From Rhodanobacteraceae bacterium (GTDB taxonomy: Bacteria; Pseudomonadota; Gammaproteobacteria; Xanthomonadales; SZUA-5): a stretch of 64,000 nt of DNA. Made by a program: the position numbers and the translations under genes. Below the pieces are notes generated by a model. The model ran no database searches. It was given only the letters and a program-made list of their open reading frames with translations, and had not been told where the DNA came from. Location of the stretch: the NCBI GenBank assembly GCA_016717705.1, contig JADKFD010000003.1, positions 73,892 through 137,891 on the forward strand. Direction: 5' to 3'. Positions 229-61,197 of the stretch are shown one piece after another (the stretch's first letter is position 1; each line of letters starts with the position of its first letter).

Positions 229-1457
229 GTGCGACCCATCGTTGGCAACTGCTGGCCATCCTCATCGGCATCGGCGTCCTGCTGTATCTGCTCGGGCCGG
301 TGCTGACGCCATTTGCGATGGCGGCACTGCTCGCTTATCTCGGCGACCCGCTGGTCGATCGCCTGCAGACGCGCGGCCTGAGCCGCAGCGCATCGGTGTC
401 GATCGTGTTTGCGGCGATGACTTTGGCGCTGCTGCTGCTGCCGTTGATCCTGATTCCACTGCTGGAAACGCAGATCACCACCTTGGTCGAGAAATTGCCG
501 CAGTACCTGGGCTGGATTCGCGAACGCCTGATGCCACTTTTGGTCGAACGCCTCGGCGTCGACCCGGCGCTGCTCGGCACCGACCAGATCGTCGACATGC
601 TGAAAGCGCACTGGCAACAGGCCGGCGGCATCGCCACCACGGTGATCAAGTCGGTGTCGCAGTCGGGTCTCGCCATCATCGGCTGGATCATGAATCTGCT
701 GCTGATTCCAGTTGTCACCTTCTATTTCCTGCGCGACTGGGACCAGATGATCCTGCGTGTACGCGAACTGCTGCCGCGCAACGTGGAGGCCCGTGTGGCC
801 GAACTTGCACGGCAGTCCGATGAGGTGCTGAGCGCCTTCCTGCGCGGCCAGATCGCGGTGATGCTGGCGCTGGGGCTGATCTATTCGATCGGCCTGTGGC
901 TGGCCGGCCTGAAGCTGGCATTCCTGATCGGCATGGGTGCCGGCCTGCTCAGTTTCGTGCCCTACCTCGGCGGCATCCTCGGTGTCGGCGGCGCCGTGAT
1001 CGCGGCGCTCGTCGAGCATCATGACGTGATCCACGTGGTCTACGTCCTGATCGTCTTTGGCATTGGCCAAACACTGGAAGGCTTCGTGCTGACGCCGTGG
1101 CTGGTCGGCGATCGCATTGGACTGCATCCGGTAGCCGTGATCTTCGCCATCCTCGCCGGTGGCCAACTGTTCGGTTTCATCGGCGTTTTGCTGGCGCTAC
1201 CGGTCACCGCGGTGCTGATGGTCATCCTGCGCCATGTGCATGAGCGCTATGTGCAGAGCGATTTGTATCGGGAGGGAGCGACCAAACAGCCGGGACTCGG
1301 GACCCGGGACCCGGGACCCGGTCCGAGCCCGCAAGAGACCAGTGACACGCCAAGCCCAAGCGTCCAGACGCTCGGCATGCCCGCGGATTCAGGAGCGGCG
1401 GGTCCCGGGTCCCGGGTCCCGGGTCCCGGCGACGGCACGCCGGCAGACACCCAATGA
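225..1457 (+). CDS. AI-2E family transporter (PerM/YdiK-like permease) with an unusual ~50-aa Gly/Pro-rich C-terminal tail
   Basis: Internal ATG at 225 (MSATHRWQLLAILIGIGVLLYLLGP...) starts a polytopic membrane protein typical of AI-2E transporters. The stop overlaps the hda start (ATGA at 1454-1457). The tail is encoded by the GGGACCC/GGGTCCC arrays. Confidence 0.8.
   Translation: MSATHRWQLLAILIGIGVLLYLLGPVLTPFAMAALLAYLGDPLVDRLQTRGLSRSASVSIVFAAMTLALLLLPLILIPLLETQITTLVEKLPQYLGWIRERLMPLLVERLGVDPALLGTDQIVDMLKAHWQQAGGIATTVIKSVSQSGLAIIGWIMNLLLIPVVTFYFLRDWDQMILRVRELLPRNVEARVAELARQSDEVLSAFLRGQIAVMLALGLIYSIGLWLAGLKLAFLIGMGAGLLSFVPYLGGILGVGGAVIAALVEHHDVIHVVYVLIVFGIGQTLEGFVLTPWLVGDRIGLHPVAVIFAILAGGQLFGFIGVLLALPVTAVLMVILRHVHERYVQSDLYREGATKQPGLGTRDPGPGPSPQETSDTPSPSVQTLGMPADSGAAGPGSRVPGPGDGTPADTQ
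1290..1429. repeat. Inverted pair of heptamer arrays: (CGGGACC)n at 1290-1323 and (CGGGTCC)n at 1399-1429, inside the perM-like 3' coding end
   Basis: Read directly: ccgggactcgggacccgggacccgggacccggtcc ... cgggtcccgggtcccgggtcccgggtcccgg, about 75 nt apart. The arms are reverse complements. Confidence 0.8.
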
Positions 1458-2971: not shown

Positions 2972-3033
2972 GTGAGCGCAGCGAACCGCATCGATGGCCG
3001 CCTTTCTCGATCGATGCGGTTCGCTGCGCTCAC
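2972..3033. repeat. REP-type hairpin: perfect 24-bp inverted repeat gtgagcgcagcgaaccgcatcgat / atcgatgcggttcgctgcgctcac
   Basis: The arms at 2972-2995 and 3010-3033 are exact reverse complements with a 14-nt loop. The hairpin lies just downstream of the rimO stop. Single arms recur at 36809, 55287 and 58161. Confidence 0.8.
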
Positions 3034-7721: not shown

Positions 7722-8813
7722 TCAGACGTTGAAGCGGAAGTGCAGCACATCGCCTTCCTGCACGATGTACTCCTTGCCCTCCAGGCGCAGCTTGCCCTCG
7801 GCCTTGGCACCGGCTTCGCCTTTCAGACGGATGTAATCGTCGTAGGCGATGGTTTCGGCGCGGATGAAGCCCTTCTCGAAGTCGGTGTGGATCACACCCG
7901 CGGCCTGCGGCGCGGTGAAGCCGGCCTTGATCGTCCAGGCGTGCACTTCCTTCTCGCCGGCGGTGAAATAGGTGCGCAGGCCAAGCAACTTGTAGCCGGC
8001 ACGGATCACCCGGTTCAGGCCCGGCTCGGTCAGGCCCATGTCGGTCAGGAAAGCCTCGCGGTCGGCTTCGTCCAGTTGTCCCAGCTCTTCCTCGATCGAC
8101 GCGCACACCGGCACCACTTCGGCGCCTTCGGTGGCGGCGCGGGCGCGCACGGCATCCAGGTACGGGTTGTTCTCGAAGCCATCTTCCTTGACGTTGGCCA
8201 CGTACATCACCGGCTTCAGCGTCAGCAGGAACAGATCGCGGATCAGCAATTTCTCTTCGGCGCTCAAATCGACGGTGCGCGCCGGATTGCCCTGGTTGAG
8301 CGCAGCGCTGACCTTGGCCAGCACCGGACGCCGGGCGATGGCGTCCTTGTCGCCGGCCTTGGCGGCGCGCTCGGCGCGATTGAGCGCCTTGTCGACGCTG
8401 TCGAGGTCGGCCAGCGCCAGCTCGGTGTCGATGGTGTCGATGTCGGAGATCGGATCGATCTTGCCGTTGACGTGGACGATGTCCTCGTTCTCGAAGCAGC
8501 GCACCACGTGCGAGATCGCATCGACCTCACGGATATGCGCCAGGAACTGATTGCCCAGGCCCTCGCCCTGCGCGGCGCCCTTGACCAGGCCGGCGATGTC
8601 GACGAACTCGATCGTGGTCGGGATGATCTTCAGCGGCTTGGCGATCTTCGACAGCGCCTCCAGGCGCGGATCGGGCACACCCACCACCCCGACATTCGGG
8701 TCGATGGTGCAGAAGGGATAGTTCGCCGCCGGAATGCCCGCCTTGGTCAGCGCGTTGAAAAGCGTGGACTTGCCGACGTTCGGCAGGCCGACGATGCCGC
8801 ATTTGATGCCCAT
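7722..8813 (-). CDS. ychF: Ribosome-binding ATPase YchF
   Basis: [23 protein letters not shown]... 363 aa, full-length YchF/OLA1 likeness. Confidence 0.95.
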
Positions 8814-8865
8814 TTGGTTCTCCGCCGCGGGTTGCGCGGCTGGTTGAGGATTGAGGTTTCTTGGA

Positions 8866-9100
8866 GCAGTGAATAGTGAGTAGTGAGTGGTGAGTAAAAC
8901 CCGGCGTTGTCGTTGTAGGAGCGACGTGCACGTCGCGACTCAAAAGCAGCGGCAAATGCGCAGAAGCGACGGGTGCGCCGCTCCCACGAATCCGCGCTTT
9001 GCCCGTCGCGACGGACACGTCGCTCCTACAAAGGCGCCGAAGTGCCACGGAAATGCCGGCTTTTACTCACTATTCACTACTCACCACTCACTGCTTCTGA
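8866..9100. mobile_element. MITE-like element with GTGAGTA-heptamer terminal arrays (copy 1), between pth and ychF
   Basis: Left end gcagtgaatagtgagtagtgagtggtgagtaaaacccggcg (8866-8906). Inverted right end gccggcttttactcactattcactactcaccactcactgc (9055-9100). The 148-bp core holds a GTAGGAGCGACG..CGTCGCTCCTAC REP pair. Confidence 0.65.
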
Positions 9101-9672
9101 GGCGTATGCAACAACGTCATCGCCCGCTCCATCGCCCCTTCCCGACACAGCGGGAACACGGCGATGGCCGCATCGATGGCCGAACGAATCGCCTGGTCGT
9201 CGGTTACGCTCGGCCGACCAAGCACCCACGGCGTGACCAGTTCCTTGCGGCCGGGATGGCCGATGCCGATGCGCAAGCGGTAGAACTTGCCGTGGCCGAG
9301 TTGCGCCATGGTGTCGCGCAGACCGTTCTGCCCACCGTGTCCGCCGTCGAACTTCAAGCGCGCCACGCCGGGCGGCAGATCGAGCTCATCGTGCACGATC
9401 AGTGCTTCGGACGGATCGATCTTGTAGTAGTTCAGCACCGCACTGACCGCAATACCGCTCTTGTTCATGTAGGTGGTTGGCTTGACCAGCAGCAATCCGC
9501 CCGGTGCCTTGCCAACCTCCGCGTTGAGCTTCGATTCGTGCAACAGGCGCACGCCGAGCTGTTCCGCCAGCGCATCGGCGAACCAGAACCCGGCATTGTG
9601 CCGTTGCCGCGCATGTTCGGGGCCCGGATTGCCGAGGCCGAAGACCGCGCGGATGGAAGGAGAATTGGACAT
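9088..9672 (-). CDS. pth: Peptidyl-tRNA hydrolase
   Basis: 194 aa, ...FGLGNPGPEHARQRHNAGFWF...GHGGQNGLRD... The TGA stop at 9088-9090 lies in the last heptamer of the element arm. Confidence 0.95.
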   Translation of the reverse strand: MSNSPSIRAVFGLGNPGPEHARQRHNAGFWFADALAEQLGVRLLHESKLNAEVGKAPGGLLLVKPTTYMNKSGIAVSAVLNYYKIDPSEALIVHDELDLPPGVARLKFDGGHGGQNGLRDTMAQLGHGKFYRLRIGIGHPGRKELVTPWVLGRPSVTDDQAIRSAIDAAIAVFPLCREGAMERAMTLLHTPQKQ

Positions 9673-9682
9673 GCGGAAAGGT

Positions 9683-9749
9683 CAAACGTGAAACGTAAAA
9701 CGTCAATTCGCAGCGCGCTTCGATTGACGTTTTACGTTTGACGTTTCAC
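9683..9749. repeat. Hairpin built from GTGAAAC/GTAAAAC heptamers
   Basis: caaacgtgaaacgtaaaacgtcaat (9683-9707) pairs with attgacgttttacgtttgacgtttcac (9723-9749). It lies between the rplY terminator and the pth start. Confidence 0.75.
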
Positions 9750-9751
9750 CG

Positions 9752-10713: not shown

Positions 10714-10774
10714 GGAAAGTGTGAAACGCAGATTGAAGCGCCGGCCACTTCACGTTTCACATTTCACGTTTCAC
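10714..10774. repeat. GTGAAAC-heptamer array element between prs and rplY
   Basis: The minus strand reads GTGAAACGTGAAATGTGAAACGTGAAGTGGCCGGCG...GCGTTTCACACTTTCC: a 4-unit array, a CCGG junction and a short inverted partner. Confidence 0.7.
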
Positions 10775-10799
10775 CCATTCGACGAGGCACGAAGGTGCC

Positions 10800-11787: not shown

Positions 11788-11863
11788 TGGCTGGGGCGCT
11801 AGGACTCGAACCTAGGAATGCGGGTATCAAAATCCCGTGCCTTACCGACTTGGCGACGCCCCA
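11788..11863 (-). tRNA. tRNA-Gln (anticodon TTG)
   Basis: The reverse complement TGGGGCGTCGCCAAGTCGGTAAGGCACGGGATTTTGATACCCGCATTCCTAGGTTCGAGTCCTAGCGCCCCAGCCA folds as a cloverleaf. The acceptor stem TGGGGCG/CGCCCCA and T-arm CTAGG/CCTAG pair, and CCA is encoded. One A31:A39 mismatch sits at the base of the anticodon stem. Confidence 0.85.
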
Positions 11864-12769: not shown

Positions 12770-12772
12770 TTG

Positions 12773-12959
12773 GGTTTTCGGTTTTCGGATTTTTGTCGGT
12801 CTTCGGCCAATCACGGTCGACAGCCCGGAAGCCAGCTGCGGAGTGAGCGGCTTCGAAGGGGCCGGGCGCCTGTTCGGCCGCTCTGTGTATTGGCGGCTGT
12901 GCGAAGCGGCGCCACGGGCTTGCCGGCCTTTACTCACCACTAACTACTCACTATTCACC
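12773..12959. repeat. Chimeric array element: (CGGTTTT)n array at 12773-12799 plus a GTGAGTA-family arm at 12923-12959
   Basis: ggttttcggttttcggatttttgtcgg ... ccggcctttactcaccactaactactcactattcacc. The right arm and its subterminal CCACGGnnnTGCCGGC match the other GTGAGTA-family copies. The left array is a different unit. Confidence 0.65.
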
Positions 12960-12962
12960 GCT

Positions 12963-13571
12963 CTACCGAAACGTCCACTTGCGCACCGCGATGCGCACCT
13001 GATGCTCGCCGGAACGGGCAAAAACCTTGCGCGGCAGCGGTGGATCCTGGCTGCGATCGAACTCGACGTAACGAATCTCCCAGCCGGATTGCCGCAGCAG
13101 CGCCAGTTCGCCGTCGTCGCCAAATTCAAGTTCGCTGCTCGCACCTGGCGCACGCATGCCGAGCACCCAGTAGCGCAGCGCTTCCGCCGGCAGATGCCAG
13201 TGCAACTCGCGTTGCAACAACTCCTCGGCACTGTTGGCCACACGCACCGCACCGTTCGATTCGATCAGCAGCGCCTGTCCCGGCTGCACCTCGAGGCGCC
13301 AGCTGCGACCGCTGACCGGGGCGACGAAGCGCAAGGTGTAGGCCTGGCCACGCTGCTGCCATTCGAAACGACCGCTGCCACCATCGTCGCCATCGCTGAT
13401 GGCGATGCGACCGCCAAGATCGAACTCCGTGCGTTCGAACATGCGCGATTCGCGCTCCGAAAGTCGGCCCTCGCCAGCGACGACATCGACGCCGGCATCG
13501 GGCTTGACCACGCGTGGCGCGCACGCCGGCAACATCAGCAGGGCCGCGCACAGACACAGCCAGTTCTTCAA
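12963..13571 (-). CDS. lolB: Outer-membrane lipoprotein LolB
   Basis: Signal peptide with lipobox (LKNWLCLCAALLMLPAC) and a LolB-like body (...RFEWQQRGQAYTLRFVAPVSGRSWRLE...). The proposed TTG start at 13571 overlaps the upstream TGA (TTGA). Confidence 0.75.
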   Translation of the reverse strand: MKNWLCLCAALLMLPACAPRVVKPDAGVDVVAGEGRLSERESRMFERTEFDLGGRIAISDGDDGGSGRFEWQQRGQAYTLRFVAPVSGRSWRLEVQPGQALLIESNGAVRVANSAEELLQRELHWHLPAEALRYWVLGMRAPGASSELEFGDDGELALLRQSGWEIRYVEFDRSQDPPLPRKVFARSGEHQVRIAVRKWTFR

Positions 13572-15335: not shown

Positions 15336-16604
15336 ATGGCCATTCTGGCACTGGGCATCAATCACGCGACGGCACCGATCGCGCTGCGCGAACGCGTGGC
15401 GTTCGCGCCCGAGCACACGCCGGATGCCCTGCGCGATCTCAGCACGCTGCCGGGCGTAGGTGCGGCGGCCATCCTCAGCACCTGCAATCGCACCGAGTTG
15501 TACGTCGATCATGAGCCGGGGTCCGAACATACGGCACTCGGCTGTCTGGATCGCTTCCACGGCCTCGGGCACGCCGAACTGCTCACCGTCAGTTATCGTT
15601 ACCAGGACGAGCACGCAGTACGCCATGTGTTCCGCGTGGCGACTGGCCTCGATTCGCTGGTGGTCGGCGAGCCGCAGATCCTGGGTCAACTGAAGCAGGC
15701 CTATCGCATCGCCCAGGACGCGCGCACCTTGTCCGGTCCGCTGGAGCAACTGCTGCAACGCAGTTTCTCGGTGGCCAAGACGGTGCGCACCGAAACCCGG
15801 CTCGGTGCCAATGCAGTATCGGTGGCCTATGCGGCGGTGCGTCTGGCCGGCCAGGTGTTCGACGAGATGCCCAAGCGCCAGGCGTTGCTGGTGGGTGCCG
15901 GCGAAACCATCGAACTGGTGGCGCGCCATTTGCTCGGTGCCGGCGTACGCCGCACCACCGTGGTCAACCGCACGCTGGAGCGTGCCCGCGCGCTCGCCGA
16001 CCGCATCGGCGGCCAGGCCGCGCGGTTGGCGGATCTGGAGACGCATCTGGCTGATTGCGACATTCTGGTCACCGCCACCCACGGCAACGACCCGGTGATC
16101 CGCGCCGACGCGGTCAAGCGCGCCTTCATCGGCCGTCGCCGTCGACCGCTGTTTGCCGTCGACCTTGGCGTGCCGCGCAACATCGAAGCTGCCGTTGGTG
16201 ACCTCGACGACGTCTATCTCTATACCGTCGACGACCTGCGCAACGTGGTCGAAGAGGGCCTGCGCGGTCGGCGCGAGGCCGCGGTGCAAGCCGAATCGAT
16301 GGTCAGCCTGCATGTCGAGGAGTTCATGGCCTGGTGGCGCGAACGCGCCGCCGCCTCGACCATCGTCAGCATGCGCAAACGTGCTGACCGCGCTCGCAGC
16401 GACGTCCTCGATCGCGCCATCAAGCGCCTGCACAATGGCGCCACGCCGGAAGAAGCACTGGAATTTCTGTCGCATGCACTGACCAATCGCCTGCTGCACC
16501 GCCCCACGGTGGGCCTGCGCAGCGCCGCCGCCCTGGGCGACGAGGAGTTTCTGGAATTCGCGTCGAGGTTGTTGGCGCTGGAGCCCCTGAACAGCAGTGA
16601 ATAG
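15336..16604 (+). CDS. hemA: Glutamyl-tRNA reductase
   Basis: MAILALGINHATAPIALRERVAF...LSTCNRTELY... 422 aa. The last two codons and the TAG stop (16596-16604) lie in the repeat arm. Confidence 0.95.
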   Translation: MAILALGINHATAPIALRERVAFAPEHTPDALRDLSTLPGVGAAAILSTCNRTELYVDHEPGSEHTALGCLDRFHGLGHAELLTVSYRYQDEHAVRHVFRVATGLDSLVVGEPQILGQLKQAYRIAQDARTLSGPLEQLLQRSFSVAKTVRTETRLGANAVSVAYAAVRLAGQVFDEMPKRQALLVGAGETIELVARHLLGAGVRRTTVVNRTLERARALADRIGGQAARLADLETHLADCDILVTATHGNDPVIRADAVKRAFIGRRRRPLFAVDLGVPRNIEAAVGDLDDVYLYTVDDLRNVVEEGLRGRREAAVQAESMVSLHVEEFMAWWRERAAASTIVSMRKRADRARSDVLDRAIKRLHNGATPEEALEFLSHALTNRLLHRPTVGLRSAAALGDEEFLEFASRLLALEPLNSSE

Positions 16605-16980
16605 TGAGTAGTAAGTAGTGAGTAAAACCCGGCGCGACCGCAGCTTTGCGGAGGGTGCTGCGCCTGCGACGCCGCTTATGTCCTTCGCCCCCTAAGCGGG
16701 GAAATGGTATGGCGCTGCCCGTTGCCGAACGCACGGCACCGAGCGAGCTGGGCAATAGTTTTGTCCTCCCAACGACGTGCTGGTCGAATCTCCTATCAGC
16801 ACTCGCCGACCTTGCTATCTTCCGCGCGTCAAACATTGCAGAGACGGCTCGCCACGAGTCCTGCGATTCCTCGGGCTGACATGAAAGGCAGCGCAGCAGG
16901 CACTGCGCGCTCCACAAAGCCTCGGCAGCGCCGGGTTTTACTCACTACTCACTACTCACACTCTACTCACCACTTACTGC
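16596..16980. mobile_element. MITE-like element with GTGAGTA-heptamer terminal arrays (copy 3, largest), between hemA and prfA
   Basis: Left end agtgaatagtgagtagtaagtagtgagtaaaacccggcg (16596-16634). Right end gccgggttttactcactactcactactcacactctactcaccacttactgc (16930-16980). The 295-bp core looks lower in GC and has no convincing ORF. Confidence 0.65.
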
Positions 16981-16989
16981 TCTTCGGCC

Positions 16990-18078: not shown

Positions 18079-18184
18079 GGGGGGGGCCCCGAAGAGGTCG
18101 GGGGGCGGGGGGCCCCGCCGGGGGGGGGGGGCCGGAGGGGGGGGCGGGCCGGGGGGGGGCCGGAGCGGGGGGGGTAGGGACCCT
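18079..18184. other. G-dominated low-complexity block (probable sequence artefact)
   Basis: It starts at the base after the prfA stop. Positions 18079-18180 contain 9 A/T in 102 nt, with runs of G broken by short C runs. Confidence 0.7.
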
Positions 18185-19528: not shown

Positions 19529-19627
19529 TGTCAAGGACGCAAAGACGCAAGGAAAGCAAGAGGCGCGCGGAGGCCGGTGGGCCTTGACAAACTTTGCTCC
19601 TTTGCGTCCTTAGCGTCCTTTGCGACA
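19529..19627. repeat. Inverted arrays of GACGCAA-type units around a GGCCGG core
   Basis: tgtcaaggacgcaaagacgcaaggaaagcaag ... gacaaactttgctcctttgcgtccttagcgtcctttgcgaca. The arms are largely complementary. Confidence 0.7.
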
Positions 19628-24295: not shown

Positions 24296-24447
24296 TTGGG
24301 GGCGGGCGTCCGGGCGGCCCCCGCGCCGGCGCCCCCCCCCGCCCCCCCCCCCCGGGGGGGGGTTTTGCCGCGCGCGCCCCCGCCGAATCCCCCCCCCCCC
24401 CCAAAAAACCCCCCCCCCCCCCCCCCCCCCCCCCAAACCCCCCCCCC
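24296..24447. other. C-dominated low-complexity block (probable sequence artefact)
   Basis: It contains a 26-nt C run (24409-24434), a 14-nt C run, a 10-nt G run, and isolated tttt/aaaaaa runs. It replaces the GMC 3' end and the intergenic region. Confidence 0.7.
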
Positions 24448-36850: not shown

Positions 36851-37086
36851 AGTGTAGTGCGGCGTAAGTAACTGACTTTTGTTTCCGATGCATTTTGGCC
36901 CGAGGCTAGGCGAGAGGAGGGTGAGAGCAGTCAAGCTTGCGCCGCATGCGGCGCGACTGCTCGAACGCACGCAACTTGTTGCGGGCCGGGACCGAAGGTC
37001 ATAGCTCTTCTATGGCGACGACGAACAACGACGCATCGGGTCAAAAGGCGCGGAAATAGTGGCAGTTCCTTATGCCGCACTACACT
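36851..37086. mobile_element. Candidate 236-bp MITE with 26-bp imperfect terminal inverted repeats
   Basis: Left end agtgtagtgcggcgtaagtaactgac (36851-36876). The reverse complement of the right end (37061-37086) is agtgtagtgcggcataaggaactgcc, matching at 23 of 26 positions. The interior looks lower in GC and has no ORF. Confidence 0.55.
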
Positions 37087-37182
37087 AGTCCCTTCGGGCC
37101 AACGTGGCCTGCCGCGGCGCTTCTCGTGACGTGCCGCCCGCCTGCATTCGAAGTCCCCGTCCCTCTCGAAAGTCCACCCGCC

Positions 37183-37746
37183 ATGTGCAACGCACTTCGA
37201 TGTGCCCTCGCAGCCACTCTGGTTATTCTGCTGGCGGCGTGCGCACCGCGGATCGAGCCGCGCGCGCAGCCGCAGGCGGTGCCCACTGCGGTGGAGACCG
37301 CCCAAAGCATCTTCGACCAGATCACGACCCTGCATGTCGATGGCTTGCCGAGCGACGAGCAGATGGGCGTGCTGGCCCCGCTGCTGACGACCGAACTGCG
37401 GCAAGCCCTGGAGGCCGCGCGCGACTGGCAACGCAGCGAGATCGAGCGCATGCAGCGCGCGGGCAGCGAGGACAAACCGCCGTTTGTCGAAGGCGATCTG
37501 TTCAGCAGCCTGTTCGAGGGCGCCCAGTCCGCGCGCGCCGTGTCGTCGCAGCCCGATCAGGATCGGATCGTGGTGACGCTCGATCGCAGCTACGGCGAAG
37601 GCGCGGATCGGGTGCAATGGCAGGACCGCGCCGTGCTCAAGCGCGTCGGCGATGCCTATCTGCTCGACGACATCGAATACGGCGGCGATTGGACCTTCCA
37701 GGCGGGCACATCGACGCTGCGCAAGACCCTCGGTCAGCGCGAGTAG
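37183..37746 (+). CDS. Lipoprotein of unknown function
   Basis: MCNALRCALAATLVILLAAC (lipobox LLAAC) from the ATG at 37183. 187 aa, no recognisable catalytic motif. Confidence 0.65.
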   Translation: MCNALRCALAATLVILLAACAPRIEPRAQPQAVPTAVETAQSIFDQITTLHVDGLPSDEQMGVLAPLLTTELRQALEAARDWQRSEIERMQRAGSEDKPPFVEGDLFSSLFEGAQSARAVSSQPDQDRIVVTLDRSYGEGADRVQWQDRAVLKRVGDAYLLDDIEYGGDWTFQAGTSTLRKTLGQRE

Positions 37747-37851
37747 GACCTCGGGCAGCCACGCGCCCGGCCCGATCCGAAGCGGCATCCTGCAACGACA
37801 GCGCCGCTCCGCCCCAGTAGACTGACGGTTTTCCTCACCGGAACCCACCCC

Positions 37852-38637
37852 ATGCAACTCGACCTCACCGGCCGCCATGCGCTGATCGGCGGCGGCAGCC
37901 AGGGCATTGGCCGGGCGGCCGCGCTGGAACTGGCAGCGCTCGGCGCCGACGTCAGCGTGATCGGTCGCGACCCGGCACGGCTCGACGCCACGCTGGCCGC
38001 GCTGAATGGCGTCCGCGCGGGCAATCATCACGCCCTGCTGGCCGACTATGCCGATCGCGCCAGTCTGGAGCGCATTGTCGGCGACTGGCTGGCGCAATCT
38101 CCGGCGCAGATCCTGATCAACAACACCGGCGGTCCGCCGCCGGGACCGATCGAGCTCGCCAGCGAAGCGGCCTTCCTCGACACCTTCGGCCAGCACCTGC
38201 TGTGCAACCAATTGCTGACGCGCCTTTGTCTGCCCGGTATGCGCGCCGCCGGATACGGCCGCATTGTCAACGTGATCTCGACCTCGGTGAAAGAACCGAT
38301 CAAGGGCCTCGGCGTGTCCAACACCGTGCGCGGCGCCGTGGCGTCGTGGGCGAAGACGCTGGCCACTGAACTGGCACCGGAGGGCATCACCGTCAACAAC
38401 GTGCTGCCCGGCTTCACCCGCACGGCGCGGCTGCAGGGTTTGATCGACGGCAAAGTCAAAAGCAGCGGCCAGGGTGAGGATGACGTGGCCAAAGGCATGA
38501 TGAGCGTGGTGCCGATGGGCCGCTTTGCCGATGCCAGCGAAGTGGCCAACGCGATCGCCTTCCTGGCCAGCCCGGCGGCCTCCTACATCACCGGAGTCAG
38601 CATCGCGGTGGATGGCGGGCGTACGCTGGCGCTGTAG
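37852..38637 (+). CDS. SDR family oxidoreductase
   Basis: 261 aa with a Rossmann motif GGGSQGIGRA and an SDR-like body (NVISTSVKEP...). Confidence 0.8.
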   Translation: MQLDLTGRHALIGGGSQGIGRAAALELAALGADVSVIGRDPARLDATLAALNGVRAGNHHALLADYADRASLERIVGDWLAQSPAQILINNTGGPPPGPIELASEAAFLDTFGQHLLCNQLLTRLCLPGMRAAGYGRIVNVISTSVKEPIKGLGVSNTVRGAVASWAKTLATELAPEGITVNNVLPGFTRTARLQGLIDGKVKSSGQGEDDVAKGMMSVVPMGRFADASEVANAIAFLASPAASYITGVSIAVDGGRTLAL

Positions 38638-38660
38638 CGGCGCGCTATGCTGCTTTGGTC

Positions 38661-38799
38661 CCCTCTCCCCGCGAGCGGGGAGAGGGTGGCGCCGCAGGCG
38701 ACGGGTGAGGGGCTGTCCTGACAAAGCAAACGCTTCGTGAGGGAATCCCCCTCATCCGGGTCCTTTGGACCCACCTTCTCCCCGCGCGCGGGGAGAAGG
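38661..38799. repeat. Two REP-type hairpins (CTCCCCGCGAGCGGGGAG type)
   Basis: ccctctccccgcgagcggggagaggg (38661-38686) and ccttctccccgcgcgcggggagaagg (38774-38799), both self-complementary. Confidence 0.75.
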
Positions 38800-38829
38800 A
38801 TTCAGGCTCCCTTTCGACGCGAACTACCC

Positions 38830-40284
38830 ATGCGCGATTCCCTGCTGCGACTGACCAATTTCATCGACGGTGACTACTGCGCGCCGTTGAGCAACGCCTA
38901 TCTGCCGGTGGTCGAACCGGCGACCGGCAAGAGCTTTGCCGAGGTGCCCGATTCGGGCGCCGCGGATATCGATGCCGCCGTCGCAGCGGCGACCCGCGCG
39001 CAGCGCGCCTGGGCGCAGACCGCGCCGAGTCAGCGCGCGGCGTTGCTCAGACGCATTGCCGATGTGATCGAAACGCGCCTGGACGCATTGGCCGAAGAGG
39101 AATCGCGCGACAGCGGCAAGCCGGTGAAGGTGGCGCGCAGCGTCGACATCCCGCGCGCGGTGAGCAATTTCCGTTTCTTTGCGGCGATGGCCGAGAGCTT
39201 CGTCTCCGAGAGCCATCAGGGCGAGGTCGGCACGCTGAACTACACGCTGCGCCAGCCGCTCGGCGTGGTCGGCTGTATCAGCCCGTGGAACCTGCCGCTG
39301 TACCTTTTGACCTGGAAAATCGCGCCGGCGCTGGCGGCCGGCAACTGCGTGATCGCCAAACCGAGCGAAGTGACGCCGGTCAGCGCCTGGTTGCTCGGCG
39401 AGATCGTGCAGGCAGCCGGCTTGCCGCCGGGCGTGCTCAACATCGTCCAGGGCGGCGGGCCGCGCTGCGGTCAGGCACTGGTCACCCACCCGAGAATCAA
39501 GGCGGTCTCGTTCACCGGCAGCACTGCCACCGGCGGCGCCATTGCCGCAGCCACCGCCACCCAGTTCAAGAAGCTGTCGCTGGAGATGGGCGGCAAGAAT
39601 GCCACCGTGGTGTTCGCCGACTGCGATTTCGAGCGCACCGTTACCGAAAGCGTGCGCGCCGCATTTTCCAATCAGGGCCAGATTTGCCTGTGCGGCTCGC
39701 GCATCCTGGTCGAGCGCTCGCTGCTGCCGCGTTTCCGCGAGGCCTTCCTGGCCAAGGTCGCCGAGCTCAAGGTCGGCGATCCGCGCGATCCGGCCAGCGA
39801 TATCGGCGCCGTCGTCTCAGCCGCGCATCTGGCCAAGGTACAGAGTTACATTGCGCTGGCACACGAAGAAGGTGGTCGACTGCTCACCGGCGGCGAGAGG
39901 CTCAAGATCGATGGCCGCTGCGGCGAGGGCTATTTCCTGGCACCGACGGTGTTCGACCAGCTCGACGCCCATTGCCGGGTCAATCAGGAAGAGGTTTTCG
40001 GCCCGTTGGCGACGCTGATCCCCTTCGACGACGAGGCCCAGGCGCTGGCCTTTGCCAACAGCACCCAGTACGGACTGGCCTGTTCCGTGTGGACGCGCGA
40101 CCTGGCCCGTGCGCATCGCTTCGCCGCCGCCGTGGAAGCCGGCGTGGTCTGGATCAACTGCTGGATGGCGCGCGACCTGCGCACGCCGTTTGGCGGAGTC
40201 AAGCACTCCGGCCTGGGTCGCGAAGGTGGCCTGGACGGCATGCGCTTTTTCACTGAGCCGAAGAATGTGGCGATTCATTGTTGA
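38830..40284 (+). CDS. NAD(P)-dependent aldehyde dehydrogenase
   Basis: MRDSLLRLTNFIDGDYCAP... with conserved ...LEMGGKNATVVF... and ...GQICLCGSR... (catalytic Cys). 484 aa from the ATG at 38830. Confidence 0.85.
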   Translation: MRDSLLRLTNFIDGDYCAPLSNAYLPVVEPATGKSFAEVPDSGAADIDAAVAAATRAQRAWAQTAPSQRAALLRRIADVIETRLDALAEEESRDSGKPVKVARSVDIPRAVSNFRFFAAMAESFVSESHQGEVGTLNYTLRQPLGVVGCISPWNLPLYLLTWKIAPALAAGNCVIAKPSEVTPVSAWLLGEIVQAAGLPPGVLNIVQGGGPRCGQALVTHPRIKAVSFTGSTATGGAIAAATATQFKKLSLEMGGKNATVVFADCDFERTVTESVRAAFSNQGQICLCGSRILVERSLLPRFREAFLAKVAELKVGDPRDPASDIGAVVSAAHLAKVQSYIALAHEEGGRLLTGGERLKIDGRCGEGYFLAPTVFDQLDAHCRVNQEEVFGPLATLIPFDDEAQALAFANSTQYGLACSVWTRDLARAHRFAAAVEAGVVWINCWMARDLRTPFGGVKHSGLGREGGLDGMRFFTEPKNVAIHC

Positions 40285-40287
40285 AGC

Positions 40288-40410
40288 GGTGAGTAGTAAG
40301 TAGTGAGTGGTGAGTAAAACCCGGTGATATCGGCGCCTACGGTAATCGCGACGAAGCGGGATGCCCACGGCTGTGCCGGCTCTTACTCACTACTCACTAC
40401 TCACTTATTC
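40288..40410. mobile_element. MITE-like element with GTGAGTA-heptamer terminal arrays (copy 4, smallest), between the aldehyde dehydrogenase and RidA genes
   Basis: ggtgagtagtaagtagtgagtggtgagtaaaacccgg (40288-40324), a 51-bp core, then ccggctcttactcactactcactactcacttattc (40376-40410). The ridA RBS AGGAG follows directly. Confidence 0.65.
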
Positions 40411-40421
40411 AGGAGCGAGCC

Positions 40422-40847
40422 ATGAGCGAGAGCGTCAACGCGACCAACGCCCCCAAACCCGTCGGCAACTACCCGCACGCACGCCGCGTGGGCGAGCTCT
40501 TGTTCCTGTCCGGCATCGGCCCGCGCACGCCGGGCAGCAATGCCATACCGGGCAACGAATACGCCGCCGATGGCAGCCTGACGCGCTACGACATCGCCGC
40601 GCAATGCCATTCGGTGTTCGCCAATGTGCGCGCGGTGCTGGAGGCATCGGGCGCCGGCTGGACCGATCTGATCGACGTGACCGTCTACCTGACCGACATG
40701 GCGCGCGATTTTCCGGTCTACAACCGCATCTGGGCCGAGTATTTCCCCGATCCGGCGACGGCGCCGTGCCGCACGACGCTGGGCATCACCGCCCTGCCGA
40801 CGCCAATCGCGATCGAGTTGAAGTGCGTGGCGCGGGCGGGCGCTTAG
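40422..40847 (+). CDS. RidA/YjgF family (reactive intermediate deaminase-like) protein
   Basis: 141 aa, ...PKPVGNYPHARRVGELLFLSG...DVTVYLTDM...PCRTTLGI...IELKCVA. Confidence 0.8.
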   Translation: MSESVNATNAPKPVGNYPHARRVGELLFLSGIGPRTPGSNAIPGNEYAADGSLTRYDIAAQCHSVFANVRAVLEASGAGWTDLIDVTVYLTDMARDFPVYNRIWAEYFPDPATAPCRTTLGITALPTPIAIELKCVARAGA

Positions 40848-40857
40848 CCGCAAGTGC

Positions 40858-40932
40858 GATCGCGCGCGAGCGCGCTCCTGCAAGCTTGCCGGAAGTCCAC
40901 GCAAGAATTGTAGGAGCGCGCTCGCGCGCGAT
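40858..40932. repeat. REP pair (TGYAGGAGCGCGCTCGCGCGCGAT type) between convergent genes
   Basis: gatcgcgcgcgagcgcgctcctgcaa (40858-40883) and ttgtaggagcgcgctcgcgcgcgat (40908-40932) are inverted copies. Related single copies occur near 7625, 45760 and 63500. Confidence 0.75.
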
Positions 40933-40939
40933 GCTCTAG

Positions 40940-42160
40940 TCAATCCGCTGCAAGCGCCAACCACTCGCGCAGCCGCTCGTAGACATCCGCCCGGCTGAGC
41001 AGATCGAAATGACTGCACTCGTGTGCCAGCCATTGATTCGACGGTGGGATGGCCAGCGCCAGTTCGGGATTGTGGTGCTGGCCGAGCGCGCTTTCGATCG
41101 GCACCAGACCATCGCTGGGCAGTTTTGCGACGTCCACGCCATGGCGGCCGCGAGTCGCTGCGATCGCATGCGCCCGCACGCCCTGCGGTAGCGGTACTGG
41201 CCGGCGCGTGTCGCGACGCTGGCGCCCGCGCGGCTGCGCATCGGTGACGTGGCCGAAACGCAGATCCTTGATGCCGGCGCTGCGGCTTTCGCCCAGGCGC
41301 ATCAACGGCGCGCTGTAAGGGCTGACGCCAATCGCCGTCTCGAACCAGTTGCCGGCCCGCTCCAGCGGCGCGCCGTGATGCGGTGTGCCCAGGAATACCA
41401 GCGCACTCAACTGCTTGACCCAGGCCAATCCTTCAAGCTCGGCCTGGTGCACGGCGCTGCGGGCAACCAACCCGCCCATGCTGTGACCGAGCAGGGTCAG
41501 CGATTCGACCTGGCACGGCCATCGATCCATCAGTTGCTGCAGCAAATGCGCCAGATCGCGACCGTTGTCGGCGACATGCCGCCCGCTGTTGTAGCGCAGA
41601 TACAGCGGCGCATAGCCAAACTCGCGGGCCAGTGCCGCGCCGTGGTCATGGCCCTGGCGCAGCCACTGGCGATCGGTCATGCACAGCCCGTGGATCAGGA
41701 TCAGCGGATGCGGCCCCAGCTCGGCGGGGGCGGGTCCACTCAAGTCCAACGGGTGATCACGCCAGATCAATTGCATCGGTTGCGCCAGCGGGTTGCCGCT
41801 GCGCTCCAGGTGGTCGCCGTAGACACCATTCAACGCGGCAACCACCGCCGCATGCAGCGGCGCCGGCTGCGACTGACCCAGCAGGGGCGTAGCCGCGGCC
41901 AGTGCGGCATCGACACCTTCGCCTACCAGCCGGGTGACACCACGCACGCTCTTGTAGACCAGACCGGCGATGCCCGTGGTCGGGCCGGAGAGCGGCTTGC
42001 CGACCGGCAGCGCGCGTCCGCTGATATTGCGATGCATGGCCTCGACCACATCCGTGACACCGTGCACGGCGTCGATCGCCAGACGACCGACACCACGCAG
42101 GTCATCGCCGTGGCGCCGCGTATGCGGCGGGCGTGTGGTGGATTCAGTCTTCGCGTTCAT
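40940..42160 (-). CDS. Alpha/beta hydrolase (lipase/esterase-like)
   Basis: Nucleophile elbow GHSMGG (LLGHSMGGLVARSA) and oxyanion-type LILIHGL. 406 aa from the ATG at 42160. Confidence 0.7.
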   Translation of the reverse strand: MNAKTESTTRPPHTRRHGDDLRGVGRLAIDAVHGVTDVVEAMHRNISGRALPVGKPLSGPTTGIAGLVYKSVRGVTRLVGEGVDAALAAATPLLGQSQPAPLHAAVVAALNGVYGDHLERSGNPLAQPMQLIWRDHPLDLSGPAPAELGPHPLILIHGLCMTDRQWLRQGHDHGAALAREFGYAPLYLRYNSGRHVADNGRDLAHLLQQLMDRWPCQVESLTLLGHSMGGLVARSAVHQAELEGLAWVKQLSALVFLGTPHHGAPLERAGNWFETAIGVSPYSAPLMRLGESRSAGIKDLRFGHVTDAQPRGRQRRDTRRPVPLPQGVRAHAIAATRGRHGVDVAKLPSDGLVPIESALGQHHNPELALAIPPSNQWLAHECSHFDLLSRADVYERLREWLALAAD

Positions 42161-42378
42161 GGATTGCCTTTCGATTTCGGCTTGGCGTACTTGTAGTCCG
42201 TGGGCTCTGGTGCGATTGCTCGACGGGAGCTTGCGAACGCGTCCAGACTCGGGTGCAACCGTGGTGCATTGCGCCGACGCCGCACAAGAAAGCGCACCAG
42301 AACGGTGCATGCCTCGTTCATTCCTTGACGCGCCGCCCGCGGCTGGGCACGCTCGGATCAGGCAGATGGAAACGTCCC

Positions 42379-43803
42379 ATGCTCGAGAAAGCAGCTTGTT
42401 TCGATGAGATGCTGGGAGACGATGGCACGCGGGCGCCGTATGCGCTGGTCGATGCCTGGCTGAAGTCGCTGCCGCGCGATCAGCTGGAACTGAAACGACG
42501 TGAAGCCGAAGGCCTGTTCCGGCGCATCGGCATCACCTTCGCGGTGTACACCGAAGGTGGCGATCCGGAGCGCCTGATTCCCTTCGACCTGATCCCGCGC
42601 GTACTGGCGCAAGCCGAATGGCAACGCCTGAAGCTCGGTCTGGAACAGCGCGTCAAGGCGCTGAACGCTTTCATCCACGATGTCTATCACGGCCGCGAGA
42701 TCCTGCGCGCCGGCCGCGTGCCCGAGCGCCTGGTGCTGCACAACTCGCAGTTCCGACCGGAAATGGCCGGCTTCGATCTGCCCGGCCACATCTATTCGCA
42801 CATCGCCGGCATCGACATGGTGCGCACCGGCCCCGACCAGTACTACGTGCTGGAGGACAACTGCCGCACGCCGTCCGGCGTGTCCTACATGGTCGAGAAC
42901 CGCGAGGTCATGTTGCGCCTGTTTCCCGACCTGTTCCGCCGTGCCGCGGTAGCGCCAGTGGCCCACTACCCCGACGAATTGCTGGAAACGCTGCGCTCGG
43001 TGCCGCCGCCGAACTGTCGCGGTGAACCGACGGTGGTGCTGCTGACGCCCGGCATTCACAACAGCGCCTACTACGAGCACGCCTTCCTCGCCGACGAGAT
43101 GGGCATCGAACTGGTGGAGGGCGAGGACCTGCTGGTGCAGGGCGACGTCTGCTACATGCGCACCACGCGCGGCCTGGCGCGCGTCGACGTGATCTACCGG
43201 CGCATCGACGACGAATACATCGACCCTTTGGTGTTCCACCCCAACTCCATGCTCGGCGTGCCCGGGCTGTACTTCGCCTATCGCGCCGGCAACGTCAATC
43301 TGGCCAACGCGATCGGCGCCGGCATCGCCGACGACAAGGCGGTCTACATCCATGTGCCGGAGATGATCCGCTTCTATCTCGGCGAGGAACCGTTGCTGTC
43401 GAATGTACCGACTTACGATTGCCGGCTGCCGGATGACCTGAAATACGTGCTGGCGCACCTCGATGAACTGGTGGTCAAGGCGGTGCACGGCTCGGGCGGC
43501 TACGGCATGCTGGTCGGCCCGCACGCCACGCAGGGGCAACTGGCGGAATTCAGGGCGCTGCTCAAGGCGCGTCCATACGACTACATCGCGCAACCGACGC
43601 TGTCGCTGTCGACGGTACCCACCTTCGTCGAGCAGGGCATCGCGCCGCGCCATGTCGATCTGCGTCCCTTCGTGCTGTCAGGCGGTGATCGCATCCGCAT
43701 CGTCCCCGGCGGACTGACGCGGGTGGCATTGCGCGAAGGCTCGCTGGTGGTGAATTCCTCCCAGGGCGGAGGCACCAAGGACACCTGGGTGTTGGAGGGC
43801 TGA
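42379..43803 (+). CDS. Circularly permuted type-2 ATP-grasp protein
   Basis: MLEKAACFDEMLGDDGTRAPYALV...GITFAVYTEGGDPERLIPFDLIPRVL..., 474 aa from the ATG at 42379. The family is recognised by overall sequence pattern and the conserved neighbourhood with the alpha-E and transglutaminase genes. Confidence 0.8.
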   Translation: MLEKAACFDEMLGDDGTRAPYALVDAWLKSLPRDQLELKRREAEGLFRRIGITFAVYTEGGDPERLIPFDLIPRVLAQAEWQRLKLGLEQRVKALNAFIHDVYHGREILRAGRVPERLVLHNSQFRPEMAGFDLPGHIYSHIAGIDMVRTGPDQYYVLEDNCRTPSGVSYMVENREVMLRLFPDLFRRAAVAPVAHYPDELLETLRSVPPPNCRGEPTVVLLTPGIHNSAYYEHAFLADEMGIELVEGEDLLVQGDVCYMRTTRGLARVDVIYRRIDDEYIDPLVFHPNSMLGVPGLYFAYRAGNVNLANAIGAGIADDKAVYIHVPEMIRFYLGEEPLLSNVPTYDCRLPDDLKYVLAHLDELVVKAVHGSGGYGMLVGPHATQGQLAEFRALLKARPYDYIAQPTLSLSTVPTFVEQGIAPRHVDLRPFVLSGGDRIRIVPGGLTRVALREGSLVVNSSQGGGTKDTWVLEG

Positions 43804-45712: not shown

Positions 45713-45821
45713 CGCTATCGGTTGCCGGATTTCGGATTTCGGTTGACGGAACAACGCCATCGCGCGCGAGCGCGCTCCTGCAATTCTTGCGTCCTGGCGA
45801 GGTTGTAGGCAGCGCTCGCTG

Positions 45822-45873
45822 CCCCCCCGGGGGGGGGGCCGGGGGGGGGTTGGGGGGGGGGGGGGGGGGGGGG
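45822..45873. other. Homopolymer block (C7, G10, G9, G22); probable sequence artefact
   Basis: Read directly: gcccccccggggggggggccgggggggggttgggggggggggggggggggggg. The G run is 22 nt (45852-45873). It ends 22 nt before the stop of the minus-strand gene at 45895. Confidence 0.7.
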
Positions 45874-45894
45874 ACCGCCCACAGACAGCGCGGA

Positions 45895-49224: not shown

Positions 49225-50544
49225 ATGCCGTTGGCCGATTTGTACCTCGATCACCTGCGCGAGCAGATGCGCCGCGCCGACGCCGCGCTGGAGCGCGCCG
49301 GCCTTGAACACCTGCTGATTCCGAGCGGCGTCGAGCACTATGGTTTTCTCGACGACCAGACCTACCCCTTCCGCGCCAATCCGCATTTTCTGGCGTGGCT
49401 GCCGCTGACCCGGCACCCGTCCTGCTGGATTGCCTACACGCCGGGCAAAAAACCGGTGCTGACCTACTATCAGCCGGAAGACTACTGGCATGAACCGCCG
49501 GCGGCGCCGGCCGGATTCTGGGTCGAGCACTTCGACCTTCGCGTGATCCGCGAACCCGGGCAAGCGCGCCAGCATTTGCCCGCAACGCTCGACCGCGCCG
49601 CGATCATCGGCGAAGCCAACGCCGCAATCGGCGACTGCGTGCCCAACAACCCGGACGCGGTGATCAACTACCTGCATTACCACCGCGCCTGCAAAACGCC
49701 CTACGAACTCGCGCGCATGCGCAATGCGAGCCGGCGTGGCGCCAGCGGCCATCTGGCGGCGCTCGAAGCCTTTCGCGAAGGTGCCAGCGAACATCAGATC
49801 CACCTGGAATATTGCGCGGCCGCCGCGCACACCGAGCATGATCTGCCCTACGCCAATATCGTCGCGTTGAATGAGCATGGTGCCATCCTGCACTACCATC
49901 ACTCGCCGACGCCAAGGCCACCGCATTCGCGCAGTTTCCTGATCGACGCCGGCGGCAGCGATGCCGGGTACGCCAGCGACATTACGCGCAGCTACGCGCG
50001 AGAATCCGGCGCTTTCGCCGATTTGATCACGCGCGTCGACCAGATGCAGATCGGCCTGGCGGCAGAAGCGCGCGCCGGCCGTGACTATGGCGACCTGCAT
50101 GTCGAATGCCACCGCCAGATTGCCGGCATCCTCAAGGAAGCCGATATCGTGCGCATGTCCGCGGAAGCGCAGCTCGAACGCGGCGTCACCAGCGTATTTT
50201 TCCCGCACGGCCTGGGGCATTTCCTCGGACTGCAGGTGCATGACGTCGGCGGCTTCCAGCGCGACGAGAGCGGTGGATTCATCGAGCGGCCTGTCGGGCA
50301 CCCGTATCTGCGGCTGACGCGCAAGCTCGAAGCCGGGCACGTGGTGACCATCGAACCCGGCATCTATTTCATCCCGATGCTGCTCGCCAAGCTGCGCGAA
50401 TCGGCCGACGCCCAGTCCATCAACTGGAATCAGGTCGAGGCGCTGCTGCCTTTTGGCGGCATTCGCATCGAGGACGATGTGCATGTCACGCGTGGCGCCC
50501 CGGAGAACCTGACCCGCGACGCGTTCCGGGCGGTGGATGCGTAG
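49225..50544 (+). CDS. pepQ: Xaa-Pro dipeptidase
   Basis: MPLADLYLDHLREQMRR... with M24B metal-ligand contexts (FLIDAGG, YASDITR, HGLGHFLGLQVHD, TIEPGIY, GIRIEDD). 439 aa. Confidence 0.85.
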   Translation: MPLADLYLDHLREQMRRADAALERAGLEHLLIPSGVEHYGFLDDQTYPFRANPHFLAWLPLTRHPSCWIAYTPGKKPVLTYYQPEDYWHEPPAAPAGFWVEHFDLRVIREPGQARQHLPATLDRAAIIGEANAAIGDCVPNNPDAVINYLHYHRACKTPYELARMRNASRRGASGHLAALEAFREGASEHQIHLEYCAAAAHTEHDLPYANIVALNEHGAILHYHHSPTPRPPHSRSFLIDAGGSDAGYASDITRSYARESGAFADLITRVDQMQIGLAAEARAGRDYGDLHVECHRQIAGILKEADIVRMSAEAQLERGVTSVFFPHGLGHFLGLQVHDVGGFQRDESGGFIERPVGHPYLRLTRKLEAGHVVTIEPGIYFIPMLLAKLRESADAQSINWNQVEALLPFGGIRIEDDVHVTRGAPENLTRDAFRAVDA

Positions 50545-50641
50545 GAGCGACGTGTACGTCGCGACCGACGAACTCGCCGCATCACCGATCGCGACGCACG
50601 CGTCGCTCCTACCACGCAAACGGGGCCCTGAGGCCCCGTTC
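50541..50641. repeat. REP pair (GTAGGAGCGACG...CGTCGCTCCTAC) followed by a small GC hairpin between convergent genes
   Basis: gtaggagcgacgtgtacgtcgcgac (50541-50565) and gcgacgcacgcgtcgctcctac (50591-50612), then aacggggcc-ctga-ggccccgtt (50619-50640). Confidence 0.7.
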
Positions 50642-59012: not shown

Positions 59013-61050
<2,038 letters not shown>

Positions 61051-61149: not shown

Positions 61150-61197
61150 GGGAGGGGGGGGGGGGGGGGGGGGGGGGGGCGCCCCGGGGCGCGGGCG
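61150..61197. other. Homopolymer block with a 26-nt G run; probable sequence artefact
   Basis: gggag followed by G x26 (61154-61179), then cgccccggggcgcgggcgg. It lies between the thiC leader and the stop of the S9 peptidase gene. Confidence 0.7.

Follow-up and report, generated by a model that had tools for sequence, protein, structure and literature searches.

GTGAGTA-armed palindromic elements at gene junctions of a Rhodanobacteraceae bacterium and the stop codons found in their arms

The DNA analysed here is a stretch of 64,000 nucleotides (the window, meaning throughout the whole stretch at that length) from a contig of a Rhodanobacteraceae bacterium (JADKFD010000003.1), in which pth and ychF, lolB and ispE, hemA and prfA, and an aldehyde dehydrogenase gene and ridA are each separated by a copy of a palindromic element whose arms consist of tandem heptamers of the type GTGAGTA. 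The four copies, here called A to D (Table 1), all sit between co-oriented genes, whose identities were assigned with NCBIfam and Pfam, and the window holds 18 matches to GTGAGTAGTGAG with at most one mismatch, against 0.08 expected. A first, sequence-only reading of the window had described the arms as outward-facing arrays with stop codons in all three frames, and had proposed that insertion of the element redefined the 3′ ends of at least two essential genes. Its coordinates and its statements on the reading frames of arms and stops all hold, and the stop codons of both pth and hemA do lie within inverted repeats of the element.

Elements A to D and the plan of the family

Element A has an inverted repeat (8865-8913 / 9047-9095) with arms 84% complementary, both of which start with AGCAG followed by four GTGAGTA-type heptamers, and its predicted RNA fold has an energy of -152.9 kcal/mol (z-score -13.7). 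It lies between the open reading frames (ORFs) of pth (9088-9672, minus strand; NCBIfam TIGR00447, 180.8 bits) and ychF (7722-8813, minus strand; YchF TIGR00092, 526 bits), and the same pth junction is seen in one related locus, L005 (handles of this form denote the loci and contigs compared). Element B is a hybrid, with a GTGAGTA arm on its lolB side (12931-12962) and a GGTTTTC/CGAAAAC arm on its ispE side (12772-12794). Element C, for which the predicted RNA fold reaches -207.4 kcal/mol (z-score -10.5), takes in the last codons (AGC AGT GAA TAG) of the hemA ORF (15336-16604, plus strand), which lie within the inverted repeat beginning at 16593, and its second arm is followed at a distance of 8 nt by the ATG of prfA at 16990. 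Element D adjoins the TGA of the aldehyde dehydrogenase gene (40282-40284), and 3′ of it come a Shine-Dalgarno sequence, AGGAG (40411-40415), and the ATG of ridA at 40422. After both the lolB TAG and the aldehyde dehydrogenase TGA come AGCG and then the heptamer array, and as AGCG is part of the conserved terminal unit of the arms, both of these stops abut the element directly.

Table 1. Positions in the window of elements A to D, their parts, the gene ends that they meet, and two contrasting elements with other units.
Feature	Position	Strand	Remarks
Element A, complete GTGAGTA-armed palindromic element between pth and ychF	8865-9095		231 bp
ychF-side arm of element A	8865-8896	+	Terminal unit AGCA and 4 heptamers (GTGAATA GTGAGTA GTGAGTG GTGAGTA); G-rich on + strand
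Inner clamp of element A, AAACCCGGCG	8897-8907	+	Partner GCCGGCTTT at 9055-9063
Core of element A, nested inverted pair of repetitive extragenic palindromic (REP)-type palindromes (GTAGGAGCGACGTGCACGTCGCGAC)	8913-9031		Inverted repeat I9, 8913-8939 / 9005-9031
pth-side arm of element A	9064-9095	-	4 heptamers and terminal AGCAG; G-rich on - strand, the pth sense strand
pth stop codon TGA	9088-9090	-	In first full heptamer of the arm (…CAG AAG CAG TGA GTGG…)
ychF start codon	8811-8813	-	51 nt past the far end of element A
Element B, hybrid, between lolB and ispE	12770-12962
lolB stop codon TAG	12963-12965	-	Adjoins the arm's terminal unit AGCG directly
Element C, between hemA and prfA	16593-16981		Arms 16593-16624 and 16939-16981; core 314 nt
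hemA stop codon TAG	16602-16604	+	Inside an arm of element C
Element D, between aldehyde dehydrogenase gene and ridA	40285-40411
GGGACCC-armed stopless element in the 3′ tail of the AI-2E transporter ORF	1289-1430		Contrast case
AAACGTN-armed element between rplY and pth	9676-9750		Contrast case

A scan of metagenome sequence with the junction of arm and clamp yielded 26 further contigs, mostly from one sample (names Ga0138256), among them one (L106) that is 98.3% identical to window positions 36887-43769 and another (L091) about 83% identical to the hemA-prfA region. Across the 27 GTGAGTA elements compared, arms, clamp and polarity are alike in every case (27/27): a terminal unit (G)AAGAGCR is followed by usually four tandem GTGAGTA heptamers (the arrays have a period of 7 in Tandem Repeats Finder) and then by a clamp, AAA(C/G)CCGG...CCGGGTTT, that is kept in most of the 27 copies. 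Four is the preferred number of units, in 31 of 63 GTGAGTA arms and in 59 of 106 arms overall, and the 5′ arm is G-rich and the 3′ arm C-rich, so that the G-rich strand runs towards the core, in about 51 of 53 arm pairs drawn from 12 unit families.

What the arms enclose is not conserved in this way. Cores are locus-specific and 15-419 nt long, and an all-against-all BLAST comparison of the 27 cores returned matches only between orthologous pairs and between separately inserted REP units of 16-25 nt; orthologous cores agree at 88% over 329 nt (element C and L091) or at 100% (element D and L106). The REP unit of element A recurs at 50541-50612 and in the cores of the L099 and L001 elements; palindromes of this type, GTAGGAGCGACGTG...CGTCGCGAC, form inverted pairs at 8913-9031 and 50541-50612, and a related variant, GTAGGAGCGCGCTCGCGCG, lies at 40859-40932. 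Cores thus appear to accept secondary insertions in the form of nested REP units. Element D differs from its counterpart in L106 solely by one 7-nt unit in the 3′ arm, which indicates that arms change by slippage, and hybrids with a different unit on each side occur both in the window (element B) and elsewhere (L013). Where one arm of an element has variant units, the opposite arm mirrors them: arms match at 24.0 of 28 positions within elements against 21.7 of 28 between elements (permutation p about 1e-4).

Target-site duplication was not found at 26 elements, where the repeat flanking the element measures 0, 1 or 2 nt in 14, 11 and 1 cases, as in shuffled controls. The RNA hairpins predicted for the elements range from -65 to -207 kcal/mol, with z-scores of -4.8 to -13.7, and Rfam 15 gave no match at the elements at its gathering score, the hits below that score being generic microRNA-precursor hairpins (such as MIR1437, 42 bits against a threshold of 168). 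Two models for the arms were set aside. A G-quadruplex (G4) was rejected on the units themselves, GTGAGTA, GTGAATA, GTGAGTG and GTAAGTA having no run of three G, and for a role resembling that of a Chi site the orientation would fit a break in the core, but at least five unit families occur in this one 64-kb window.

Gene ends in the window and in relatives

In the window and the 26 metagenome contigs together, a credible ORF is open 15 nt upstream of the array at 26 of the 63 GTGAGTA arms, and 25 of these 26 ORFs end between 15 nt before and 21 nt after the start of the first unit (16 inside the repeat, 9 just before it), against 2.2% for random positions. The nine earlier stops lie 8-15 nt before the first full unit, and the flanking genes are intact and full-length. 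Convergent gene pairs in L093 and L088 have both of their stops within arms.

For orthologues we used 80 pth loci with 10-kb flanks from Lysobacterales genomes, a set that does not include the source genome and in which the best Pth match is 89%. The sequence-only reading had set identical ends in element-free orthologues, on the same residues and the same stop-codon nucleotides, as the outcome that would tell against it; the ends of HemA, Pth and LolB were found to differ. HemA is conserved to LLALEPL and then closes with NSSE in the window, with QGSE in L001, with KSGES in L002 and with DGN, followed by TAG, in L003 and L004. The hemA/prfA element is present in the window and, as orthologous copies, in L001 and L091, and at element-free junctions (L002, L007, L013, L014 and others) the hemA TGA overlaps the prfA ATG in ATGA. 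At the lolB/ispE junction the stop overlaps the ispE start (ATGA) or adjoins it (TGATG) in L003-L005, and in L008 and L011-L019 the lolB TGA is followed directly by ispE-like sequence, in which ispE starts were not placed. These overlapping or tight junctions in element-free relatives imply that the element split them and that the upstream ORF today terminates within or directly beside the arm; the junctions so split were probably translationally coupled.

Two side observations concern these junctions. The element-free hemA/prfA junction of L002, AGCGGCGAGTCATGA, and the arm terminus AGCGGTGAGTAGTGA are identical at 12 of 15 positions, a likeness that may be microhomology at a target site or coincidence. 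At lolB/ispE, L001 and L002 carry inverted repeats with hexamer arms (GTGTTG/CAACAC), so that the phenomenon is not strictly confined to 7-nt units.

Pth is conserved to LHT, and the tail beyond LHT is different in every genome, with 2-5 residues more in genomes free of arrays. No array stands at the pth end in 36 of the 80 loci, and the spacer from pth to ychF in the 33 array-free loci with a placeable ychF start runs from -1 to 562 nt, with a median of 53. Where arrays are present (34 loci), the 5′ arm begins a median of 15.5 nt before the end of the pth stop and the median distance from the end of the 3′ arm to the ychF ATG is 11 nt, the arm usually ending in GGAG: the element fills the exact interval from the last constrained codon to the next ribosome-binding site. 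What changes at the gene ends is small, namely 2-4 non-conserved residues past LHT in Pth and past LLALEPL in HemA, and protein length is essentially the same. The proposal that the element redefined 3′ ends is therefore borne out in that upstream ORFs end in the element, and needs trimming in that only these few tail residues are touched.

The units of the arrays that follow pth in relatives are diverse: GGAAAAG in L001-L003, AAACGTA in L004, GTGGTAA in L008, and elsewhere GGGAATC, GGGAACG, CCGGGAC, GGTGAGC, CGTGATT and more. Four of the heptamers found at these Lysobacterales junctions, GGGAACG, CCGGGAC, GGAAAAG and GGGAATC, contain no stop. Among 44 array-bearing genomes, 7 have the pth stop ahead of the array, 17 have it within the array and 20 have it 0-12 nt behind the array, and none has it in the core; 10 of the 17 stops inside arrays fall in arrays with a stopless consensus unit, where a variant unit supplies the stop. 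When stopless arms are translated in full they give Pth tails such as LHTAGTGNGERGT and LHTNRDPGPGTRDP, each closed by a stop, and in all 37 cases of pth entering an arm, translation never reaches the core. A contrasting case in the window is the GGGACCC element, whose in-frame read-through continues to 1454, where the ORF overlaps hda in ATGA, and extends the AI-2E transporter (PerM) by about 70 low-complexity residues past its Pfam domain. The general feature, then, is a pressure for the ORF to stop in or right after the 5′ arm.

Beside these arrays, we note that in L039 a run of N at about 10600 falls exactly in a GGGAACG array after pth, which suggests that heptamer arrays break short-read assemblies. 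Elements of the AAACGTN family also lie upstream of pth in L001 (9906-9989) and L004 (8985-9050), possibly at the same junction, and the unit at the pth-ychF junction differs among the window, L001 and L004, unlike the AAACGTN family that they share upstream.

That the stops of GTGAGTA arms occur in three frames follows from the unit itself. The sequence AGTGAATAGTGAGTAGTGAG has TGA, TAG and TAG in its three frames within 16 nt and a complement free of stops; GTGAGTA holds TGA and, over the unit boundary, TAG, so that a stop comes within two units in any frame, and since 7 is not a multiple of 3, any heptamer with a stop triplet must have stops in all three frames within 21 nt. Of the 12 unit families, 5 contain stops when read in the outward sense, where base composition would lead one to expect 3.4, and 0 contain them in the complementary sense. 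The contrast between orientations that the sequence-only reading had pointed to is thus real, with the complement stop-free, and is explained by the fixed, class-wide polarity of the G-rich strand together with the absence of C from stop codons. A preference for one orientation next to ORF ends, which that reading had offered as a test, cannot discriminate between the possibilities, because an inverted repeat reads alike from both sides. The idea of the stop array as a designed or class-defining feature is not supported, in view of the stopless units at the same junctions and the lack of enrichment of stop-bearing ones: the array is a by-product of unit sequence and G-rich-outward polarity and no feature of the class. 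All-frame stops may help GTGAGTA, and the data do not support selection for them.

Origin of the elements

On balance we favour the view that these are dispersed palindromic junction elements of a partly known class, at which stops arise as an incidental by-product and no purpose-built stop device is involved. The GTGAGTA element is a unit variant of the partly described class of heptamer inverted repeats of Lysobacterales, with the same architecture and no G4. They occupy ancestrally tight or overlapping junctions, between the last constrained codon and the next Shine-Dalgarno sequence, where the upstream ORF must enter the 5′ arm and ends at its first in-frame stop. In the mRNA, the long hairpin would loop the insert out and might keep the distance from the stop to the next ribosome-binding site at about 10-20 nt, and looping-out of this kind would keep coupling and could allow insertions to be tolerated between coupled essential genes. 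The arms change by gain and loss of whole units, and copies of the element have not spread in the manner of a classical transposon that moves as a whole.

Several points weigh against this account. The RNA hairpin and the argument from loop-out tolerance are inferred, and the universal G-rich-outward polarity and the preference for four units are left unexplained. Unrelated cores, together with orthologous cores that evolve at an ordinary rate, mean that simple copy-and-paste of whole elements fails to explain the spread of the arms. The statistic on ORF ends is partly circular, since no ORF can pass through an arm that has stops in every frame, and its independent part is the nine stops before arms together with the intact flanking genes. 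Lastly, the 80 pth loci are phylogenetically related, so that counts among them are not counts of independent events, and genes in the related loci were called with a crude caller based on third-position G+C content (GC3).

The alternatives are taken here in descending order of probability. The first, unlikely in our judgement, holds that the elements benefit the host as RNA, whether by partly terminating transcription in both directions or by blocking 3′ exonucleases, and so set the expression ratio of the neighbouring genes in the manner of REP sequences and bacterial interspersed mosaic elements (BIMEs) in Escherichia coli; closeness to stop codons would then be part of the regulation. REP stem-loops are said to stabilise upstream mRNA segments, and those within about 15 nt of a stop reportedly lower translation of the upstream gene. 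The very stable predicted hairpins would suit such a function, as would the position between co-directional genes, conserved across the order, and the clamp CCGGG followed by TTTT that most copies keep. A terminator scan, which marked this clamp in element C (16921-16935, then TTTT), was blank in elements A, B and D, however, with a total of 7 matches against 5.7 in shuffled sequence and no enrichment in a scan for promoters either, and cores of up to 419 nt part the two halves of the clamp. In Xanthomonas, most heptamer repeats are transcribed and the gene order around them is unusually stable (Rehm et al., 2015; PMC4692102), which also speaks for an RNA role, whereas the turnover of unit sequence between genomes argues against a sequence-specific factor and many relatives manage the same junctions free of elements, as at the array-free pth ends counted above.

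Improbable, too, is the idea that the arms were selected as outward translational stops in three frames, as a kind of insulator, and that the family owes its success to an ability to land in the end of any ORF, in any frame and from either side. Stops inside arrays do indeed make use of each entry frame (frames 2, 0 and 1 in 8, 4 and 4 cases), in the convergent pairs of L093 and L088 the stops of both genes lie in arms, and GTGAGTA is the commonest family in this genome, accounting for 4 of the window's elements, which number about 10, and for at least 27 copies in the metagenome. Pressure for an early stop is moreover present in every family, the stop lying in a variant unit or 0-12 nt after the array with no entry into the core. 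Three-frame stops nevertheless follow arithmetically from one unit sequence, stop-bearing families are not enriched, and stopless families, which share the same asymmetry of G over C polarity, prevail at the pth junction and number up to 186 copies per genome in Xanthomonas (PMC4692102). Also tolerated are tails 10-13 residues long and the extended read-through in PerM.

More doubtful is a third possibility, which touches the features that interest us more than the stops do (the fixed polarity, the preferred number of four units, the mirroring of arms and their conservation around cores that are unrelated): the unit of inheritance would be an arm module of roughly 45 nt, made up of terminal unit, four heptamers and clamp, installed or maintained on both sides of unrelated DNA by a symmetric process acting genome-wide. 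The process might add G-rich repeats from a template to the 3′ ends at a break, copy one arm from the other with a hairpin as template, or be a directed gene conversion. Such a module would account for the polarity of the G-rich strand towards the centre, for the preference for four units where no G4 can form and for mirrored variant units, and likewise for missing target duplications, unrelated cores and lineage-specific units at orthologous junctions. Were this so, Lysobacterales would have a repeat-generating system of a kind not described before.

Least probable is an ordinary miniature inverted-repeat transposable element (MITE), moved whole by a DDE transposase and found near stops through purifying selection on insertions, for which the terminal inverted repeats with a conserved outermost unit, presence and absence among relatives at hemA/prfA and lolB/ispE and the many copies in one metagenome population would speak, but which is contradicted by the missing target-site duplication, by non-orthologous cores that share no homology apart from separately inserted REP units, by hybrids with different unit families on their two sides, and by both element ends falling exactly at functional boundaries in 34 genomes with no native spacer left.

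Whichever process placed them, in many Lysobacterales the C-termini annotated for housekeeping proteins (Pth, HemA and others) are set by heptamer repeats, with differences between close relatives, and tails encoded by heptamers and stops supplied by elements are to be expected in annotation and comparative work. Where a heptamer incapable of forming a G4 shows the same architecture of four units in inverted arms close to a stop, the one rationale published for it loses its generality, and the question of how this architecture originates and is kept is reopened. Hairpins of such predicted stability in formerly overlapping junctions of essential genes also provide a natural test bed for translational coupling across structures that are looped out.

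Other repeats of the window and comparison with known systems

The window holds about ten arrays or armed elements of at least six unit types. Besides those in Table 1, they include a nonamer-armed element (GGACGCAAA) that separates convergent genes, a GTGAAAC/TTCACGT array in the interval from prs to rplY, a CGGATTT array standing alone behind a stop and an array of GGTTGTT units that spans 65 nt; these simple-sequence arrays were located among 19532-19624, 10720-10775, 45726-45742 and 63387-63451. Unrelated palindromes, among them the CCCTCTCCCCGCGAGCGGGGAGAGGG type and a spacerless one with 42-nt arms, lie at 38661-38799, 58827-58910, 2972-3033 and 36851-37086. Intergenic tracts rich in G or C homopolymers (18079-18175, 24313-24447, 45829-45877 and 61150-61179), one of them immediately 3′ of the prfA stop, may represent genuine low-complexity elements or artefacts of sequencing or assembly. 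A tRNA gene (11791-11863, minus strand) and a thiamine pyrophosphate (TPP) riboswitch (60948-61045, minus strand) are both ordinary.

Among known systems, bidirectional intrinsic terminators resemble the centre of the element in having an A-tract, a GC-rich stem and a T-tract (AAAACCCGGCG...CGCCGGGTTTT), whereas here the stem halves are 15-419 nt apart, the T-tract has 3-4 residues and is followed by a paired arm of 28 nt, and the whole lies inside operons of essential genes. MITEs such as Correia, ERIC and RUP are likewise small and intergenic, with terminal inverted repeats, a hairpin in the transcript and occasional stops or tails supplied to neighbouring genes; the GTGAGTA elements differ in showing no target-site duplication, in having no common internal sequence and in arms that vary by whole units. 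With REP sequences, BIMEs and REPINs (REP doublets forming hairpins) they have in common that they are short, abundant, hairpin-forming and extragenic, occur as inverted pairs 3′ of operon genes, and are species-specific in sequence. A GTGAGTA arm is, however, a tandem array without self-complementarity and no imperfect palindrome with a GTAG head, and the spacing between arms is highly variable; true REP-type palindromes (GTAGGAGCGACG...) are present separately in the window, nested in cores.

Abundant intergenic arrays of two to six 7-nt units, near gene ends and with a lineage-specific unit, also characterise the TAACTGA repeats and the short tandemly repeated repetitive (STRR) heptamers, the latter reportedly cyanobacterial. 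Both are almost entirely direct repeats beside start codons, unlike the GTGAGTA elements with their inverted pairs of arms around a core beside stops. For TAACTGA, in Beggiatoaceae, cyanobacteria and Bacteroidetes, 169 direct sets against 1 indirect have been counted, just upstream of starts (MacGregor, 2015; PMC4679880).

The closest likeness within the same order is to the heptamer repeats with the unit GGGAATC in Xanthomonas (Rehm et al., 2015, PLoS One; PMC4692102), and our searches for later work on heptamer or GGGAATC repeats in Xanthomonas, Stenotrophomonas and Lysobacter brought up no study apart from that one and MacGregor (2015). There are 183-186 arrays of these repeats per genome, with a preference for four units and about 70 convergent inverted pairs per genome; they lie mostly between co-oriented ORFs, on the coding strand and within 50 bp of the upstream stop, overlaps included, and 83% keep their gene context between Xcc and Xac (PMC4692102). 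Their function was given as unknown, and the G-quadruplex served both to define the class and as the rationale for four units (PMC4692102). The GTGAGTA elements share the tandem 7-nt units, with four preferred, the convergent inverted pairs and a G-rich coding strand at 0-50 bp from the upstream stop between co-oriented ORFs, and in both systems positions are kept among related genomes while length and sequence vary. Unlike a unit of the GGGNATC type, GTGAGTA has no G-run and contains stop triplets, and so falls outside a family defined by G4. The terminal unit, the inner clamp, the unrelated cores, the mirrored variant units and the translated stopless arms go beyond what was described for Xanthomonas (PMC4692102).

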